Below are positions 1 through 5,786 of a DNA stretch of 6,747 nucleotides, one piece after another. Numbering within the stretch: position 1 is the first letter of the stretch; every line of letters begins with the position of its first letter. The notes under the pieces are model-generated. The model was given only the letters and a program-made list of their open reading frames with translations, searched no databases and had not been told where the DNA came from. The position numbers were made by a program, and so were the translations under genes. This stretch comes from Escherichia coli (GTDB taxonomy: Bacteria > Pseudomonadota > Gammaproteobacteria > Enterobacterales > Enterobacteriaceae): assembly GCF_050320075.1 (NCBI RefSeq), contig NZ_CP190024.1. The stretch is one strand, 5' to 3'.

Positions 1-927
1 ATGAGCGCCGCGCTTCAATACTTCGACGAAAATTTACCCCACCGTCCCTATCACACGGATGATCTCGCTTTTGGTCTTCGCATCTCCGGCAAAGGGCGTG
101 CGCTTCTTGCGCGGTACATCCAGCAGAACCAGCCTCATGCGCAGTTCTGGCTGGTTTTTGATGTTGACCGCGAGGGGGCAGCGATTGACTGGAGTGACCG
201 GAACGCTCCCGCGCCGAACATCACCGTAAAAAATCCTGTGAACGGTCATGCTCACCTGCTCTACGCGCTCAATATCGCCGTGAGAACCGCGCCGGACAGC
301 TCGGTTAAGGCGCTGAAATACGCCGCTGCGATTGAACGTTCGCTGTGTGAGAAACTTTGTGCTGATGTGAACTACAGCGGACTGATTTGTAAAAATCCGT
401 TCCACCTGGAATGGCAGGTGATGGAGTGGCGAGAGGAAGCCTATACCCTCGGTGAACTGGCTGATTATCTCGATTTGAGTGCCTCAGCGCGCCGTAGCAT
501 CGATAAACGTTACGGGATGGGGCGAAACTGCCACCTGTTCGAAATGACGCGCAAATGGGCTTACAGGGCGATTCGTCAGGGCTGGCCAGCATTCTCACAG
601 TGGCTTGATGCCGTGATTCAGCGTGTCGAAATGTACAACGCATCGCTTCCCGTTCCGCTTTCTCCGGCTGAATGTCGGGCTATTGGCAAGAGCATTGCGA
701 AATACACGCACAGGAACTTCACGCCGGAAACTTTCGCACAGTATGTGGCTGATACGCACACGCCAGAAATTCAGGCTGCACGTGGTCGCAAGGGCGGGAA
801 AATTGGAGGTGCTAAGTCTAAGCGTGGTGCTGTTGCCACATCTGCGCGAACGTTGAAACCGTGGGAGACTCTTGGAATTAGCCGCGCCTGGTATTACCAA
901 CTGAAAAAACGAGGTCTTGTAGAGTAG
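1..927 (+). CDS. rep: ColE2-family plasmid replication initiator Rep (plasmid-specific primase)
   Basis: 308-aa ORF from ATG at 1 to TAG at 925-927. The protein closely resembles, from memory, the Rep proteins of ColE2/ColE3-type plasmids (about 300 aa with a basic C-terminal DNA-binding tail, here ...GRKGGKIGGAKSKRGAVATSARTLKPWETLGISRAWYYQLKKRG). A ColE2-like origin motif follows the stop codon directly. Putative RBS GGAG at 6730-6733 if the molecule is circular. Confidence 0.88.
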   Translation: MSAALQYFDENLPHRPYHTDDLAFGLRISGKGRALLARYIQQNQPHAQFWLVFDVDREGAAIDWSDRNAPAPNITVKNPVNGHAHLLYALNIAVRTAPDSSVKALKYAAAIERSLCEKLCADVNYSGLICKNPFHLEWQVMEWREEAYTLGELADYLDLSASARRSIDKRYGMGRNCHLFEMTRKWAYRAIRQGWPAFSQWLDAVIQRVEMYNASLPVPLSPAECRAIGKSIAKYTHRNFTPETFAQYVADTHTPEIQAARGRKGGKIGGAKSKRGAVATSARTLKPWETLGISRAWYYQLKKRGLVE

Positions 928-975
928 ACCAAATAAAACCTATATCAGATAACAGCGCTTTTTTGAGCTGTTGGC
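928..975. promoter_or_regulatory. ColE2-type replication origin (Rep binding and primer synthesis site)
   Basis: Directly after the rep stop: AAATAAAACCTATATCAGATAACAGCGCTTTTTTGAGCTGTTGGCG. The core TATCAGATAACAGCGC (943-958) matches my recollection of the conserved ColE2-P9 minimal ori, which lies immediately 3' of rep in that family. Short inverted repeat ACAGC..GCTGT at 952-970. Exact boundaries are approximate. Confidence 0.6.
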
Positions 976-1035
976 GTTTGGTGGCTTTTTCGTTTCCTCC
1001 CTGCAATGGTGCGGCTTTCCGCGTGATTGAGGTTG

Positions 1036-1098
1036 TAGCGCTCGCCGCAGTCTCATGTCCGAGCGTAGCGAGCGAATGAGCGAGGAAGCGCAAAGGCG
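1036..1098. other. ColE1/pMB1-backbone-like segment, candidate single-strand initiation (primosome assembly) site
   Basis: GCGCTCGCCGCAGTCTCATGTCCGAGCGTAGCGAGCGAATGAGCGAGGAAGCGCAAAGGCG is roughly 80% identical by eye to the pMB1/pUC segment CCGCTCGCCGCAGCCGAACGACCGAGCGCAGCGAGTCAGTGAGCGAGGAAGCGGAAGAGCG, which sits just downstream of the ColE1-type origin. Functional call is inference from position (about 60-120 bp downstream of the ColE2 ori). Confidence 0.35.
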
Positions 1099-1132
1099 TC
1101 CGGTGGTGTATGTGGCTCTTACGCGCCGGGGC

Positions 1133-1408
1133 TTAGTGGTTCTGCGGTTTCGCCGGTGGTCTGGGTAGCTTCTCCAGCTCGTTAATCAGCGGTTGTAGTC
1201 GGTTCATATCGGCCTGTCTTGTGACTTCCTTTCGCAGAAACTGGAGCAGGAACGCACGCAGTTGCGCTTCTTCCGGCCTCCGTACCCTCGCCAGCATGGC
1301 AGCCCCCACAATGACTTTTTGCGCCGTGTCCAGGCTCCGGCTCTTCGCCTTCAGGCGCTGTAATCTGGCCTCAGCTTCGGCAATCTTCTGTTCGAGTGTT
1401 CTGCTCAT
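1133..1408 (-). CDS. mobC: MobC-family mobilisation accessory protein (relaxosome component)
   Basis: 91-aa ORF on the minus strand, divergent from the relaxase gene with the putative oriT in between (RSF1010-like arrangement). Charged coiled-coil N-terminus followed by KVIVGAAMLARV, resembling the MobC family. GGAG RBS about 8 nt upstream of the ATG (complement of 1406-1408); stop is the complement of 1133-1135. Confidence 0.72.
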   Translation of the reverse strand: MSRTLEQKIAEAEARLQRLKAKSRSLDTAQKVIVGAAMLARVRRPEEAQLRAFLLQFLRKEVTRQADMNRLQPLINELEKLPRPPAKPQNH

Positions 1409-1494
1409 TTCGTGACTCCGTGCGCGGTGAAAAATCGTATTTTAGCGCGTCACTGGTAGTTGCAAAACTGAACTGGCATAATGCACGGCACATC

Positions 1495-1550
1495 ACGAAG
1501 TGCGCACTTATACAATCTTCACTTCGTTTCGATTGTGTGCGCCCTGCGGG
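1495..1550. promoter_or_regulatory. Candidate oriT (nic region) and divergent mobC/mobA promoter region
   Basis: Intergenic region between divergent mobC and mobA. Inverted repeat CGAAGTG (1495-1501) / CACTTCG (1520-1526), including the perfect 12-bp palindrome AAGTGCGCACTT (1497-1508), followed by GTGTGCGCCCTGCGGGG (1535-1551). This resembles the RSF1010 nic region as I recall it (GGTAAGTGCG^CCCTCCCC), which would put the nick near 1541/1542. Confidence 0.5.
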
Positions 1551-1586
1551 GCTGAAAGAAAACGGCAAAAAGGCATTACGGAAGAA

Positions 1587-3806
1587 ATGGCGATTTATCA
1601 TCTCAGCATGAAAATCATTTCGCGAAAAAACGGCTACAGTGCCGTTGCTTCTGCTGCCTACCGTTCCGGCTCTGTCATACCCGATGACCGTACCGGATTA
1701 ATCCACGATTACACCCGTAAACGCGGCGTTGATGATGCGGTCATTCTCACCCCTGCGAATGCACCGTCCTGGTGTGGTGACCGTTCCGTTCTCTGGAATG
1801 CGGTCGAGAAAGCCGAACAGCGCCGGAACTCCCAGCTGGCAAGGGAGATTGAACTCGCCATTCCCCGTGAGATTTCCCGCGAGGCCGCACGGGAGGCCGT
1901 TCTCGCTTTTGTCCGGGAAAACTTTGTCAGTCGGGGCATGATTGCCGATGTGGCGTTCCATCATATGGACCGGACCAACCCCCATGCACACATCATGCTG
2001 ACCACGAGAGCTGTCGGGGAAACGGGATTCGCAGGAAAGGTCAGGGACTGGAACGACCGGGCACTCGCCGAGACGTGGCGCGCATCATGGGCTGACCATG
2101 CGAACAGAGCGCTTGCGAACGCCGGCTACCAGGAAGAGATAGACCATCGTTCATACGAGCGTCAGGGACTGGAGAAAGCGCCGGGCCTTCACCTCGGAAA
2201 GGCTGCCTGTGCGATGGAAAAACGGGGCATGGAAACAGAACGCGGTGAGCAGAACCGCCTGATTAACAGCCTTAACCTGGAAATACAGGTTTCCCGCACA
2301 AGGCTGGCAGTCATCCAGGTACAGGAGAACGTGCGGAAACGGGAACTCAGCGATGCCGCACGTCGTGCAGCGGAAGCCCTTAATCTGACCATTCCCGCCG
2401 CGAATGCCTCAGCGGATACCCTGCGGGAATTCATTGCCACACTGCCGCAGGAATGCGGGAACGCATGGGAGATGACACCGGAGTTCGTGGCGATGAACGG
2501 GAAGGCAAACGACATCAAACGTGAGGGGAATGCGCTGGTGAAAGAGCGGGATATTCTCGAAAAAGAGATGACCGGACTCAGAAAATCCCGTCCGGTAGCG
2601 TCCATCCTGTCAGAGCTTCCCCTGATGACATGGGCTGAACCGGAATACCGCAAAAGACAACTCCGCTTCTGGAAACTCGAGAAACAGATTGAATCTCTTC
2701 TCCGCACCTACAGGGCCGTGAAAGAACGGGACATTCCCGCCCGTCGTCAGGCCTTTGAAACGCAGTGGAATACGTGGATTTCGCCGGGAATGGCAGAGCT
2801 GAAAGAAAAACTGTCAGCACGGGAAGCGGAGCGGCGCAGGGAGGAAGCCGAAGCGGAAGCGCGCCGGAAGGAACAGGAATATGACGCACGGCTGAAACAC
2901 CATGATAACCATCGCCTGAGCCGTGAAACGGCATTAGCCGGGGTTATTACGGAGCTGGGGCGTGCCAGAGAGCCGGGAACGGGCAGGATAACCCGCTACA
3001 TGATGCTGAGTAACAGAGCCGGAGAATTCACGGTATGGGGTGATGAGCTGGCGCATTACCCCCAGAGTGTTCATGACCCGGTGAATGTTTACCTGTCGCC
3101 AGGCGGGGCTGTGATGGTCTCGGATATACGTGAGAGAATGCCAGAATCTCATGAGACGATGGCGCGGCCTGAGCGTGTGAGAATGTATTCCGGTGCGACG
3201 GTCCGGCATGTACTGGAACAGATGCGCCAGGGGTGGCCCTCTTACGGTTTTCCGGCGCTGCCGCATCACTGGCCGGATAATTTTTATTTCAGCGACGACC
3301 GCAGGCCCGCAGCCTCTCCGCTGCCGTCAGCGCACCGGGTGGACGTCACCGCTTATGCGGCACCGGAGCAACTCATGCCCGTTGTCTTTTCGACAGAGCG
3401 AAACAGCAGGACGCTGAATCTGCTGTTGTGCGAAGGGCCGGAGGAAATGCTTGTCGGTTTTGTGCGCCTGGAGGACGAGCTGCGTCCCGTTCTTGCGCTT
3501 CCGTCGCCGGATTACAGTCATCTGATGGTAAGCATCATCACAGAGAACGGGATACACCTGGCAGGTTACGGTGAGGCCATAAACCGTGATGCTGATACTC
3601 CGTACCCACCGGAACCGAAGCTGATGCAGTTCAGGCTTAAGGGCTGTCAGGACACGCTTTTTGCTGCCATCAACAAACCGGAAGAGATGCCGGATTATCT
3701 CTTCCGTCAACTCGGATTTAATCAGACCTGGCATGAGTGGAAGCGGGAGGAACAGCGCAGGCAACAACAACGCCGTCCCGGGCACTTCCGGGGCATGAGT
3801 ATGTGA
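1587..3806 (+). CDS. mobA: MobA/MobL-family (MobQ) conjugative relaxase with a long C-terminal extension
   Basis: The ORF track starts at a GTG at 1500, but the in-frame ATG at 1587 gives the N-terminus MAIYHLSMKIISRKNGYSAVASAAYRSGS, typical of MobA relaxases (RSF1010 MobA starts MAIYHL) and placing the catalytic Tyr near the N-terminus. Histidine triad HHMDRTNPHAHIML. Stop TGA at 3804-3806. Residues from about 250 to 740 include a charged coiled-coil stretch and a C-terminal region I cannot assign to a domain by eye. Confidence 0.9.
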   Translation: MAIYHLSMKIISRKNGYSAVASAAYRSGSVIPDDRTGLIHDYTRKRGVDDAVILTPANAPSWCGDRSVLWNAVEKAEQRRNSQLAREIELAIPREISREAAREAVLAFVRENFVSRGMIADVAFHHMDRTNPHAHIMLTTRAVGETGFAGKVRDWNDRALAETWRASWADHANRALANAGYQEEIDHRSYERQGLEKAPGLHLGKAACAMEKRGMETERGEQNRLINSLNLEIQVSRTRLAVIQVQENVRKRELSDAARRAAEALNLTIPAANASADTLREFIATLPQECGNAWEMTPEFVAMNGKANDIKREGNALVKERDILEKEMTGLRKSRPVASILSELPLMTWAEPEYRKRQLRFWKLEKQIESLLRTYRAVKERDIPARRQAFETQWNTWISPGMAELKEKLSAREAERRREEAEAEARRKEQEYDARLKHHDNHRLSRETALAGVITELGRAREPGTGRITRYMMLSNRAGEFTVWGDELAHYPQSVHDPVNVYLSPGGAVMVSDIRERMPESHETMARPERVRMYSGATVRHVLEQMRQGWPSYGFPALPHHWPDNFYFSDDRRPAASPLPSAHRVDVTAYAAPEQLMPVVFSTERNSRTLNLLLCEGPEEMLVGFVRLEDELRPVLALPSPDYSHLMVSIITENGIHLAGYGEAINRDADTPYPPEPKLMQFRLKGCQDTLFAAINKPEEMPDYLFRQLGFNQTWHEWKREEQRRQQQRRPGHFRGMSM

Positions 3807-4037: not shown

Positions 4038-5786
4038 ATGAGCGGTGGAGATGGACGCGGCCATAACACGGGCGCGCATAGCACAAGTGGTAACATTAAT
4101 GGTGGCCCGACCGGGATTGGTGTAAGTGGTGGTGCTTCTGATGGTTCAGGATGGAGTTCGGAAAATAACCCGTGGGGTGGTGGTTCCGGTAGCGGCATTC
4201 ACTGGGGAGGTGGCTCCGGTCGTGGTAATGGCGGGGGTAATGGCAATTCCGGTGGTGGCTCGGGAACAGGCGGTAATTTGTCAGCAGTAGCTGCGCCAGT
4301 GGCATTTGGTTTTCCGGCGCTTTCCACTCCAGGAGCTGGCGGTCTGGCTGTCAGTATTTCTGCAAGCGAATTATCGGCAGCTATTGCTGGTATTATTGCT
4401 AAATTAAAAAAAGTAAATCTTAAATTCACTCCTTTTGGGGTTGTCTTATCTTCATTAATTCCGTCGGAAATAGCGAAAGATGACCCCAATATGATGTCAA
4501 AGATTGTGACGTCATTACCCGCAGATGATATTACTGAATCACCTGTCAGTTCATTACCTCTCGATAAGGCAACAGTAAACGTAAATGTTCGTGTTGTTGA
4601 TGATGTAAAAGACGAACGACAGAATATTTCGGTTGTTTCAGGTGTTCCGATGAGTGTTCCGGTGGTTGATGCAAAACCTACCGAACGTCCAGGTGTTTTT
4701 ACGGCATCAATTCCAGGTGCACCTGTTCTGAATATTTCAGTTAATAACAGTACGCCAGCAGTACAGACATTAAGCCCAGGTGTTACAAATAATACTGATA
4801 AGGATGTTCGCCCGGCAGGATTTACTCAGGGTGGTAATACCAGGGATGCAGTTATTCGATTCCCGAAGGACAGCGGTCATAATGCCGTATATGTTTCAGT
4901 GAGTGATGTTCTTAGTCCTGACCAGGTAAAACAACGTCAGGATGAAGAAAATCGCCGTCAGCAGGAATGGGATGCTACGCATCCGGTTGAAGCGGCTGAG
5001 CGAAATTATGAACGCGCGCGTGCAGAGCTGAATCAGGCAAATGAAGATGTTGCCAGAAATCAGGAGCGACAGGCTAAAGCTGTTCAGGTTTATAATTCGC
5101 GTAAAAGCGAACTTGATGCAGCGAATAAAACTCTTGCTGATGCAATAGCTGAAATAAAACAATTTAATCGATTTGCCCATGACCCAATGGCTGGCGGTCA
5201 CAGAATGTGGCAAATGGCCGGGCTTAAAGCTCAGCGGGCGCAGACGGATGTAAATAATAAGCAGGCTGCATTTGATGCTGCTGCAAAAGAGAAGTCAGAT
5301 GCTGATGCTGCATTAAGTGCCGCGCAGGAGCGCCGCAAACAGAAGGAAAATAAAGAAAAGGACGCTAAGGATAAATTAGATAAGGAGAGTAAACGGAATA
5401 AGCCAGGGAAGGCGACAGGTAAAGGTAAACCAGTTGGTGATAAATGGCTGGATGATGCAGGTAAAGATTCAGGAGCGCCAATTCCAGATCGCATTGCTGA
5501 TAAGTTGCGTGATAAAGAATTTAAAAACTTCGACGATTTTCGGAGAAAATTCTGGGAAGAAGTGTCGAAAGATCCTGAGTTAAGTAAGCAATTTAATCCA
5601 GGTAATAAAAAACGCTTGAGCCAAGGATTAGCTCCACGGGCTAGGAATAAAGATACTGTCGGTGGGCGTCGCTCATTTGAGCTTCATCACGACAAGCCAA
5701 TCAGTCAGGATGGTGGTGTTTATGATATGGACAACCTCCGTATCACTACGCCGAAACGCCATATTGATATTCACAGAGGTCAGTAA
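4038..5786 (+). CDS. col: E-group DNase colicin (BtuB/Tol-dependent, HNH nuclease C-terminus), most consistent with colicin E8-type
   Basis: 582-aa ORF with RBS GAGGG at 4026-4030. Glycine-rich N-terminal translocation domain containing the TolB box DGSGW (residues 35-39). Central coiled-coil region of the kind that forms the receptor-binding domain. C-terminal HNH/beta-beta-alpha-Me motif [34 protein letters not shown], diagnostic of the DNase colicins E2/E7/E8/E9. Subtype inferred from the adjacent immunity gene. Confidence 0.93.

Follow-up and report, generated by a model that had tools for sequence, protein, structure and literature searches.

The main finding obtained in this work was that the C-terminal domain of MobA, the relaxase of a small colicin plasmid of Escherichia coli, is a homologue of the extreme C-terminal part of Sog, a protein encoded within conjugative I-type (Dot/Icm-like) T4SS clusters. 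This domain, referred to here as Sog-C, spans residues ~446-729 (2922..3773, plus strand, of the window, as we call the whole stretch of 6,747 nucleotides analysed) and was recognised by BLASTP, tblastn, phmmer, the profile A1 and an AlphaFold (AF2) model with a pLDDT of 87.3. Residues 449-733 of MobA align with residues 946-1246 of the 1255 of SogL (BLASTP E 6e-48, 34% identity), and comparisons with the last ~290-300 residues of IncI1 Sog gave 34-37% identity (E 1e-45 to 6e-48). A homology of MobA to SogL was published in 2019 (PMC6856555), and the remaining findings appear to be unreported. The preliminary description of this DNA had considered a primase, an interaction with the coupling protein or something else for this region; of these three, we infer that interaction with the coupling or secretion machinery is the best supported. 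The more specific proposal, that Sog-C is a helper-matched module recruiting the relaxase to the T4SS, stands in our judgement at about even chances.

The plasmid and the relaxase domain of MobA

A complete MOBQ42 plasmid of the ColE9/ColE2 type, 6.7 kb in size and 100% identical to pACN001-D, makes up the window. As indicated by its ORFs and the RefSeq annotation, it carries colicin E9, immunity and lysis genes and has no T4SS genes. Its backbone matches that of MOBQ42 plasmids, with the ColE2-type replicon, the colicin operon, a divergent mobC and a 178-bp oriT all present. The mobA gene (1587..3806, plus strand), encoding 739 amino acids plus the stop codon, was assigned from its ORF, the RefSeq CDS in pACN001-D and the description of the MOBQ4 relaxases (PMC6856555). 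The ORF as listed runs from a GTG start at 1500 to 3806, and the annotated ATG lies at 1587 (RefSeq WP_063114182.1); in this numbering, residue 252 corresponds to window position 2340 and the stop codon ends at 3806. Divergent from mobA, a 91-residue ORF on the minus strand (1133..1408), annotated in RefSeq as hypothetical, is a mobC-like accessory gene: the equivalent gene of a MOBQ41 plasmid bears the annotation relaxase accessory protein MobC, and mobC has been described in MOBQ4 plasmids (PMC6856555). The gap between both genes (1409..1586) measures exactly 178 bp, the length of the experimentally defined MOBQ4 oriT fragment (PMC6856555), and is assigned on this basis as the oriT acted on by MobA. 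An Rfam scan of the window gave no match. The IncI-type plasmid of strain ACN001, pACN001-F, lacks sog and the traH-traU core, and co-residence of a helper thus gives no support either way to the proposal discussed here.

As anticipated in the preliminary description, which placed the relaxase domain in the first ~200-250 residues, the N-terminus of MobA (~215 residues) is an HUH relaxase domain of the MobA_MobL/MobQ type (residues ~18-213; 1638..2225, plus strand). It was matched by Pfam MobA_MobL (PF03389, residues ~18-213, E 2e-70) and by NCBIfam MobQ (NF041496, residues ~1-193, E 7e-78, 261 bits with the cut-off at 200), and the PDB sequences 4HT4 (NES, E 9e-30) and 2NS6 (R1162 MobA, E 2e-9) aligned only with residues ~2-190. 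The catalytic Y25 of motif I and the histidine triad H125/H133/H135 of motif III are present as listed in PMC6856555, and MobA is therefore a MOBQ relaxase, with an N-terminal HUH domain carrying the catalytic tyrosine and the histidine triad.

The region beyond the relaxase domain

The preliminary description found no function assignable from motifs beyond the relaxase domain, and this holds for the standard libraries: residues 252-739 matched no family in Pfam, NCBIfam or PHROGs and no PDB sequence, profiles included. Its division into a charged helix followed by a globular C-terminal domain was also correct, with shifted boundaries. Residues 252-445 (2340..2921, plus strand) form an all-helical region which occurs only in MOBQ4-like relaxases and is probably a spacer. 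The charged stretch, formerly placed at residues 380-470, does exist, but its composition peaks at residues ~391-447 (2757..2927, plus strand), abutting the C-terminal domain, with an E+R+K fraction of 0.57-0.60 in 30-residue windows starting at 401-411; the AF2 model shows it as the end of a single predicted helix of ~100 residues (351-449), and the DNA contains a 27-nt tandem duplication within it (2823-2876). The middle region is confined to close relatives. It is absent altogether in the relative P0078, in which only a short E/R/K linker is retained at the position of this helix, and natural deletion variants lack 60 residues of it (P0047) or everything past residue ~405 (P0053).

The C-terminal domain begins not at residue 470, as first proposed, but at ~446 (homology is detected from ~438-450), and ends at ~729. 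In the AlphaFold model it comprises three parts, namely a small OB-like barrel (sub-domain 1, residues ~450-535; 2934..3191, plus strand) with the strand order b1-b2-b3-helix-b4-b5 and the invariant G458, L474 and W484-G485, a roughly nine-strand meander beta-barrel (sub-domain 2, residues ~584-695; 3336..3671, plus strand), and two C-terminal helices (residues ~703-729; 3693..3773, plus strand; helices 268-274 and 280-294 of the model) carrying the invariant L709-G710-F711 (nt 3711-3719). Sub-domain 2 forms the core that was detected most widely across the family, and it is also a hot spot of divergence within MOBQ42. A disordered Arg-rich tail follows (residues 730-739, RRPGHFRGMSM; 3774..3803, plus strand; pLDDT ~55), and the last 45 residues have a net charge of +3.

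A first possibility to be weighed is that the whole region is evolutionary baggage, in the sense of a dispensable extension under little constraint. It does diverge more than the relaxase domain (35-45% against 83% identity between MOBQ41 and MOBQ42), and the deletion variants P0047 and P0053 occur in nature. Nevertheless, dN/dS was 0.23-0.40 in all sub-regions of residues 252-739, compared with 0.05-0.15 for the relaxase domain, and this purifying selection rules out a chance ORF extension. Furthermore, every relaxase lineage found had retained Sog-C, including those without the middle region, its predicted fold is confident, and profile A1 contains 15 invariant columns across sequences only 20-45% identical, all of them kept in MobA. 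We therefore hold the baggage explanation to be very improbable.

The nature of the invariant positions bears on the kind of function to be expected. MobA has the three invariant motifs of Sog-C, W-G, G-x-G and L-G-F, the last one found in 15/15 diverse members of the family. Only G, L, W, P and F occur among the invariants; no polar residue is conserved, K and R included, and the net charge of the domain ranges from -4 to +7 across the family (-1 in MobA). Sog-C is thus a non-enzymatic domain, and these data suit a binding module better than either an enzyme or a conserved surface for DNA binding. The same data bear on the rather unlikely alternative that Sog-C is a ssDNA-binding module that coats and protects the transferred strand, or aids termination and recircularisation, in both Sog and MobA: the OB-like appearance of sub-domain 1 would suit it, but no conserved basic or aromatic DNA-contact surface was found in the Sog-C alignment.

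A relaxase-linked primase, like RepB' in the MobA of RSF1010/R1162, is the alternative to which we give the least weight, as practically negligible. The MOBQ1 precedent exists (PMC12857230), and the 2019 wording of "low homology to SogL primases" (PMC6856555) is open to such a reading. However, the homology falls at SogL 946-1246, far downstream of its Toprim_3 domain (266-365), and DUF5710 and LPD7 of SogL also lie upstream of this stretch. No Toprim, AEP, PriCT or RepB' signal was detected by sequence or fold, no PDB primase was matched, conserved polar residues, acidic ones included, are absent, and the priming function is carried by the plasmid's own Rep, composed of the Pfam domains Replicase and PriCT_1. 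The comparison with RepB' raised in the preliminary description consequently led to rejection of the primase, and a misreading of the "homology to SogL primase" is corrected, since the relaxase carries none. Separate translation of the C-terminus in the manner of SogS or RepB' was also considered and discarded, because no Shine-Dalgarno start lies just upstream of residue ~440; the SD-like in-frame sites of mobA (residues 249, 301-318, 472 and 509) are unremarkable.

Distribution, exchange and proposed docking role of Sog-C

Sog-C was found by tblastn in 2547 plasmid records, and its carriers are Sog-type proteins of I-type T4SS clusters and MobA/MobL relaxases, with no others. In agreement, the long matches of a whole-library phmmer search were either DUF5710/Toprim/LPD7 proteins, at their extreme C-terminus only, or MobA_MobL relaxases; the short matches were fragments. 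DUF5710 and Toprim were present in SogL, P0057, P0062, P0090, P0093 and P0113, and LPD7 (PF18821) in every Sog-type match; all three are absent from MobA. In the six plasmids inspected, sog occupied the same position (traJ-traK-sog-traL-traM-traN-traO) within the I-type T4SS cluster; five of them were typed MPF_I and the sixth has the same DotI/DotH/TraO genes. The mobA gene of the window is not at this site between traK (icmT) and traL/traM. The IncI plasmid examined has one copy of Sog-C, in Sog, and no second copy was found elsewhere in it, for example in NikB. The Sog-type protein of the IncL plasmid pOXA-48 also carries Sog-C (profile E 9.5e-33), and the IncL/M version has diverged strongly and is without the LGF helices. 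Matches of 313-355 residues resembled stand-alone Sog-C proteins; P0124, the only one of them checked, begins 166 nt from the end of its contig, beside traL/dotI/dotH, and is a truncated sog. According to the preliminary description, clear homology to a characterised domain would have made the region ordinary; the homology to the C-terminus of Sog is clear, but Pfam has no entry for that domain, which is uncharacterised as well.

Both Sog and the relaxases enter the recipient, and the Sog-type carriers, regarded as polyvalent proteins delivered along with DNA, have LPD7, which belongs to large proteins of the polyvalent kind (PMC5512222). These observations would suit a role of Sog-C in the recipient after transfer, such as recruitment of host replication or repair factors or blocking of defence. 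We consider this role improbable, given that no match to known anti-defence or host-factor-binding domains was obtained and that Sog-C is always the last domain and the only one shared with the relaxases, a pattern more in keeping with an address tag than with one payload among many.

Evidence of modular exchange came from comparing four relaxases, whose relaxase domains are 67-83% identical and whose C-terminal domains are of two types, only 24-27% identical to each other. The C-terminal domains of the window type and of MOBQ41 group beside the IncI1 Sog clade, and those of P0078 and P0056 share 77% and 61% identity, respectively, with the Sog-type protein P0090 of an IncK2/Z-typed plasmid. 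Judged by sequence, each type is thus closest to a different Sog clade. In P0056, a remnant of the first-type domain lies ahead of a complete second-type module. We tentatively suggest, at somewhat less than even chances, that Sog-C is a portable address domain of conjugative I-type T4SSs (IncI, IncK and IncL/M), captured at least twice by small MOBQ plasmids from the sog genes of their helpers, with a different helper lineage matched on each occasion, and that by mimicking Sog it sets their helper range.

This pattern also bears on a role of Sog-C in the donor relaxosome, by MobA oligomerisation or by binding of oriT, MobC or plasmid DNA, which would underlie the cis-preference of the MOBQ4 relaxases. 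Acting in cis improves the performance of these relaxases by a factor of 500 or more (PMC6856555), and long helices and barrels are frequent oligomerisation devices. Even so, Sog carries Sog-C yet is no relaxosome protein, and the C-domain types track the Sog clades while oriTs and relaxase domains remain similar, so that we regard such a role as quite unlikely.

In the docking mechanism that we propose, the MobQ HUH domain (residues 1-~215) nicks oriT and stays on the 5' end, and the charged helix would keep the docking module at a distance from the relaxase. Sog-C would be the part of Sog recognised by the I-type machine, either through the coupling complex (TrbC/DotL-like and TrbA/DotM-like) or at another docking site, and by sharing it the small plasmid may have its relaxase-DNA complex accepted as a substrate by the machine of the helper. 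C-terminally truncated Sog is reportedly not transferred. In PMC8406263, which cites Wilkins and Thomas (2000), SogL is described as a natural substrate of the Dot/Icm-like (MPF_I) T4SS, exported to recipients in hundreds of copies and independently of DNA. The most efficient helper of MOBQ4 plasmids is R64drd11 (IncI1, MPF_I); another that works efficiently is pCTX-M3 (IncL/M, MPF_I), and helpers of the MPF_F type fail (PMC6856555). The dN/dS of 0.33-0.40 was likewise counted in favour of docking.

Other observations count against it. RP4 and R6K (MPF_T) also mobilise MOBQ4 plasmids, although less efficiently (PMC6856555), pCTX-M3 is efficient despite the divergent, LGF-less Sog-C of IncL/M, and the OB-like sub-domain 1 would suit ssDNA binding as well. 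Moreover, the cognate IncI relaxase NikB lacks Sog-C, which is therefore not the sole route into the I-type machine. Regarding sog itself, R64 transfer showed only a small drop without it (PMC6112013), whereas it was essential in another report (PMC4027160); in transposon data the SogS part was essential, possibly through polar effects on the tra genes that follow it.

In E. coli, Shigella and Salmonella of clinical and animal origin, colicin and cryptic plasmids of the MOBQ4 group are very common. To spread, they depend on helpers of the IncI type, which are in turn major carriers of ESBL genes. With ~290 residues common only to the exported protein of the helper and the relaxase of the hitcher, and exchanged more than once, Sog-C offers a mutable and swappable handle on helper choice and on substrate recognition by I-type T4SSs. 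If the address-domain proposal is true, these plasmids hitch-hike by mimicry of the secreted protein of their helper, which would set the helper range; if Sog-C binds ssDNA instead, it would still represent a new family that thousands of sequenced plasmids carry and that Pfam lacks.

Comparison with known systems

The MobA proteins of ColE9-J and pRC2 (MOBQ42) and of pIGWZ12 and pE2022_4 (MOBQ41), described by Garcillan-Barcia et al. (2019, PMC6856555), belong to the same family and share the backbone of ColE2-type Rep, mobC-oriT-mobA and colicin operon. MobA of the window is a MOBQ42 member and does not itself differ from that family; what is added here is the confinement of the strong match to the non-primase end of Sog, the predicted fold, the family distribution, the two Sog-matched types and the link to the preference for MPF_I helpers. 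SogL and SogS of R64 and ColIb-P9 (IncI1) have the homologous last ~290 residues and are I-type T4SS substrates, as is expected of MobA. Unlike Sog, MobA lacks DUF5710, the Toprim primase and LPD7, the linker before Sog-C is an E/R/K-rich helix in MobA and Pro/Ala/Glu-rich and disordered in Sog, and no SogS-like internal start was seen in MobA.

The MobA-RepB' of RSF1010/R1162 (MOBQ1) likewise combines an N-terminal MobQ-class relaxase with a large C-terminal extension for a non-nicking role, but its extension is a primase, whereas that of the window MobA has no primase features; R1162 MobA also acts in trans and MOBQ4 relaxases in cis (PMC6856555). NES of pLW1043/pSK41, the closest solved relaxase domain (4HT4, E 9e-30), also has a large separate C-terminal domain. 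A precedent for folded relaxase domains, rather than short peptides, as the T4SS address is given by TSA and TSB of the F/R1 TraI (PMC3912908); Sog-C shows no structural similarity to the TSA/TSB fold and is proposed to act in a like manner.

The Plasmid Backbone and Its mob Region

The window (6747 bases) spans an entire small plasmid. Four E. coli plasmid records, pACN001-D (NC_023325.1) among them, are 100% identical to it from end to end, and many colicin plasmids of the ColE2/ColE9/ColE5 type from E. coli, Shigella and Salmonella are 92-98% identical. The backbone of the window's plasmid is of the MOBQ42 type, with ColE9-J as prototype, within the MOBQ4 group defined by Garcillan-Barcia et al. 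(2019; PMC6856555). Besides the relaxase gene mobA, it carries a ColE2-type rep gene (1-927; Pfam Replicase and PriCT_1), the colicin E9 gene (4038-5786) and immunity and lysis genes. A 91-aa open reading frame on the minus strand (1133-1408), divergent from mobA and annotated as hypothetical in RefSeq, corresponds to mobC, the accessory gene of MOBQ4 plasmids; the sole Pfam hint for its product is a sub-threshold match to Relaxase_C, a helical hairpin. The gap between both genes (1409-1586) measures exactly 178 bp, the length of the segment experimentally shown to contain oriT in MOBQ4 plasmids (PMC6856555). The annotated mobA begins with the ATG at 1587 and encodes 739 aa before its stop codon. 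The open frame extends 29 codons upstream to a GTG at 1500, inside the oriT region; a 768-aa version is called by some pipelines (JGI; homologs P0011 and P0023).

A C-terminal Domain in Common with Sog

The relaxase domain lies where a preliminary description had placed it, within roughly the first 200-250 residues of MobA: Pfam MobA_MobL covers about 18-213, NCBIfam MobQ about 1-193, and PDB 4HT4 (NES) and 2NS6 (R1162 MobA) span only the first ~190. The same description could assign no function to the remainder, and residues 252-739 (2340-3803) had no match in Pfam, NCBIfam, PHROGs or PDB sequences. When 1.84 billion representative proteins were searched with this region, 63 hits resulted which, fragments aside, were of two kinds: MobA_MobL relaxases (P0055 of MOBQ41, P0056 and P0078), and proteins of 1065-1442 aa matched at their extreme C-terminus only and bearing DUF5710, Toprim_3 and LPD7, the architecture of SogL. 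Short hits resembling stand-alone copies of the domain were contig-end artefacts (P0124 was checked). In SogL (1255 residues; Toprim at 266-365, LPD7 at 776-861), residues 946-1246 align with MobA 449-733 (E 6e-48). In a tblastn search of PLSDB, MobA 445-739 matched 2547 records; conjugative plasmids account for 1869 of these, and IncI1 sogL is matched at E about 1e-45 with 34-37% identity. The MobA of MOBQ4 plasmids has been credited with "low homology to SogL primases" (PMC6856555); judged by these alignments, the homology is strong and lies entirely within the part of Sog that is not the primase. We call the shared domain Sog-C; it was rightly recognized earlier as a C-terminal domain, and begins near residue 446 rather than 470.

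In all six large plasmids inspected, namely pCH41 (IncI-gamma/K1), Yersinia pYR6, an Erwinia amylovora plasmid, an IncK2/Z-typed E. coli plasmid, a Klebsiella plasmid typed IncFII with MPF_I (the I-type transfer system) and IncL pOXA-48, the carrier is a Sog-type gene between traJ-traK (icmT) and traL-traM-traN-traO (dotI, dotH and others), inside an I-type, Dot/Icm-like transfer cluster. A six-frame profile scan of pCH41 found Sog-C once only, in Sog, and none in its relaxase NikB. The copy in the Sog-type protein of pOXA-48 is divergent (E 9.5e-33 with the whole profile, 8.5e-24 with the first barrel and 2e-5 with the second) and lacks the LGF helices. For the gene of this protein (NC_019154.1, 38217-41508), the annotation gives two CDSs that overlap, one for a toprim protein (38217-39569) and one for an LPD7 protein (39532-41508). 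A frameshift, a split made in annotation or an internal product resembling SogS could account for this; pri of pCTX-M3 could encode a 689-aa C-terminal protein (PMC6112013). Strain ACN001 harbours, together with pACN001-D, the IncI-gamma/K1 plasmid pACN001-F (NC_023326.1), in which traG leads directly to traV around 69259-70623 and traH-traU, including sog, are missing. This plasmid matched neither the Sog-C profile nor, by blastn, the pCH41 segment traI-traR, and is nonetheless typed "conjugative, MPF_I".

The AlphaFold2 model of Sog-C, built from a 15-sequence alignment whose profile found no Pfam family and no PDB sequence (mean pLDDT 87.3, pTM 0.67), predicts a small b1-b2-b3-helix-b4-b5 barrel (MobA 450-535), a helix and low-confidence loop, a roughly nine-strand meander barrel (~584-695) and two helices (703-729) before a disordered Arg-rich tail. 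Foldseek gave no match at E <= 0.001, the best local matches being OB domains, and neither primase, RepB' nor the TraI signal domain was among the fold matches. A RepB'-type primase, one of the options left open by the preliminary description, is thus in effect excluded, the homology being at the non-primase end of Sog. The plasmid-specific primase of a ColE2-type replicon such as this one is Rep, with its Replicase and PriCT_1 domains, so that a relaxase-linked primase of the RSF1010 kind is not needed. Invariant columns of the family are G458, L474, W484, G485, P593, L614, G624, G655, G660, G662, F682, P698 and L709-G710-F711. Conservation extends to no polar or charged residue, and the charge of the sub-domains changes sign from member to member. 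This pattern fits a structural or binding module rather than an enzyme, and lends little support to a conserved DNA-binding face.

Selection, Mosaicism and Apparent Domain Exchange

Comparison of mobA with its counterparts in three MOBQ42 relatives and in one MOBQ41 plasmid gave dN/dS values of 0.05-0.15 in the relaxase domain, 0.23-0.28 in residues 252-445 and 0.33-0.40 in residues 446-729. Both latter regions are thus constrained, and the idea of a dispensable filler is so improbable that it can in effect be discarded. Within MOBQ42, the second barrel (aa 584-700; 3336-3686) is a divergence hot spot (79% aa identity, dS 0.32), far more divergent than the adjoining first barrel (98%, dS 0.03) and the relaxase domain (dS 0.03-0.04), which points to recombination inside a mosaic mobA.

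The middle region was modelled from a shallow alignment of six sequences as helices only (pLDDT 72.5), with one unbroken helix at 351-449, and is probably a spacer, perhaps in the form of one stable helix or of a dimerising hairpin. The E/R/K-rich segment described previously exists, at about 391-447 instead of 380-470; inside it, an imperfect 27-nt tandem duplication (2823-2876; 70% identity; EAERRREEA/EAEARRKEQ) is found, and it seems to be through such duplication that the charged helix became longer. In P0047, a natural 679-aa MOBQ42 variant, exactly 60 residues are missing between two 22-nt direct repeats (2538-2559 and 2718-2739, exactly 180 nt apart, both encoding VKERDI), probably through a repeat-mediated in-frame deletion. 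The region is homologous in MOBQ41 and P0056 and missing from P0078, where a short E/R/K-rich linker joins relaxase and Sog-type domain. A further protein, P0053 (621 aa; UniRef cluster of 17, Enterobacteriaceae), is a MobA-colicin chimera joining ~1587-2800 to ~5100-5786, presumably a deletion derivative of a window-like plasmid without the Sog-type domain and the colicin N-terminus.

Identity among the relaxase domains of the window's MobA, P0055, P0056 and P0078 is 67-83%, and the C-terminal domains of these proteins fall into two types only 24-27% identical to each other. In the Sog-C tree, the window's type and MOBQ41 adjoin the IncI1-like Sog clade (P0055 shares 45% identity with SogL and the same with the window's MobA), and P0078 and P0056 nest with P0090, the Sog-type protein of an IncK2/Z-typed plasmid (77% and 61% identity). 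P0056, an 824-aa MOBQ4-like relaxase (gene 838-3312) of a small Rep_3 plasmid (Logan SRR23994534 contig, 7431 bp), has a remnant of a first-type small barrel before a complete second-type module, which looks like a trace of domain replacement. Its plasmid also encodes a GH28 pectinase-like protein and an MFS transporter.

Possible Function of Sog-C

The ColIb-P9 transfer system has SogL as a natural substrate, of which it delivers hundreds of copies independently of DNA (PMC8406263), and both SogL and SogS are transported (PMC6112013). Among helpers of MOBQ4 plasmids, R64drd11 (MPF_I) is the best and pCTX-M3 is good, F-type helpers fail and MPF_T helpers are uneven; MOBQ4 and MPF_I plasmids also recurrently occur together in isolates (PMC6856555). 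The one evident thing in common between a Sog protein and a small-plasmid relaxase is the need for uptake by the same machine, and Sog-C is the sole sequence that they share. For these reasons, and given the precedent of TraI, we favour, with about even confidence, the view that Sog-C is a helper-matched module for recruitment or translocation. In early work, C-terminally truncated Sog polypeptides reportedly retained primase activity and were not transferred. Against the favoured reading, NikB has no Sog-C, RP4 and R6K can mobilise MOBQ4 plasmids, the IncL/M copy is very divergent, yet pCTX-M3 is a good helper, and reports on the need of sog for R64/pESBL transfer conflict, or may reflect polarity. 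The main rival, that the OB-like barrel binds ssDNA, would agree with the old idea of Sog coating the transferred strand, but loses weight since no basic residue is conserved, and appears rather unlikely. Action in the donor-side relaxosome is less probable still, and action on the recipient side is just as doubtful.

Earlier publications already cover the protein family, the type of plasmid and the mere fact of homology to SogL. In the literature searched, which took in few subscription journals, we found no report of where the homology lies, of the Sog-C fold or its restriction to two kinds of proteins, nor of the two types matched to Sog clades or of a connection, as proposed here, with the choice of helper. 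The idea of a helper-matched module is directly testable with existing constructs. MobA fits a known kind, the relaxases with accessory C-terminal domains determining transfer, and the role proposed for Sog-C would resemble that of TSA and TSB of TraI, folded relaxase domains that serve as an address for the T4SS (PMC3912908).
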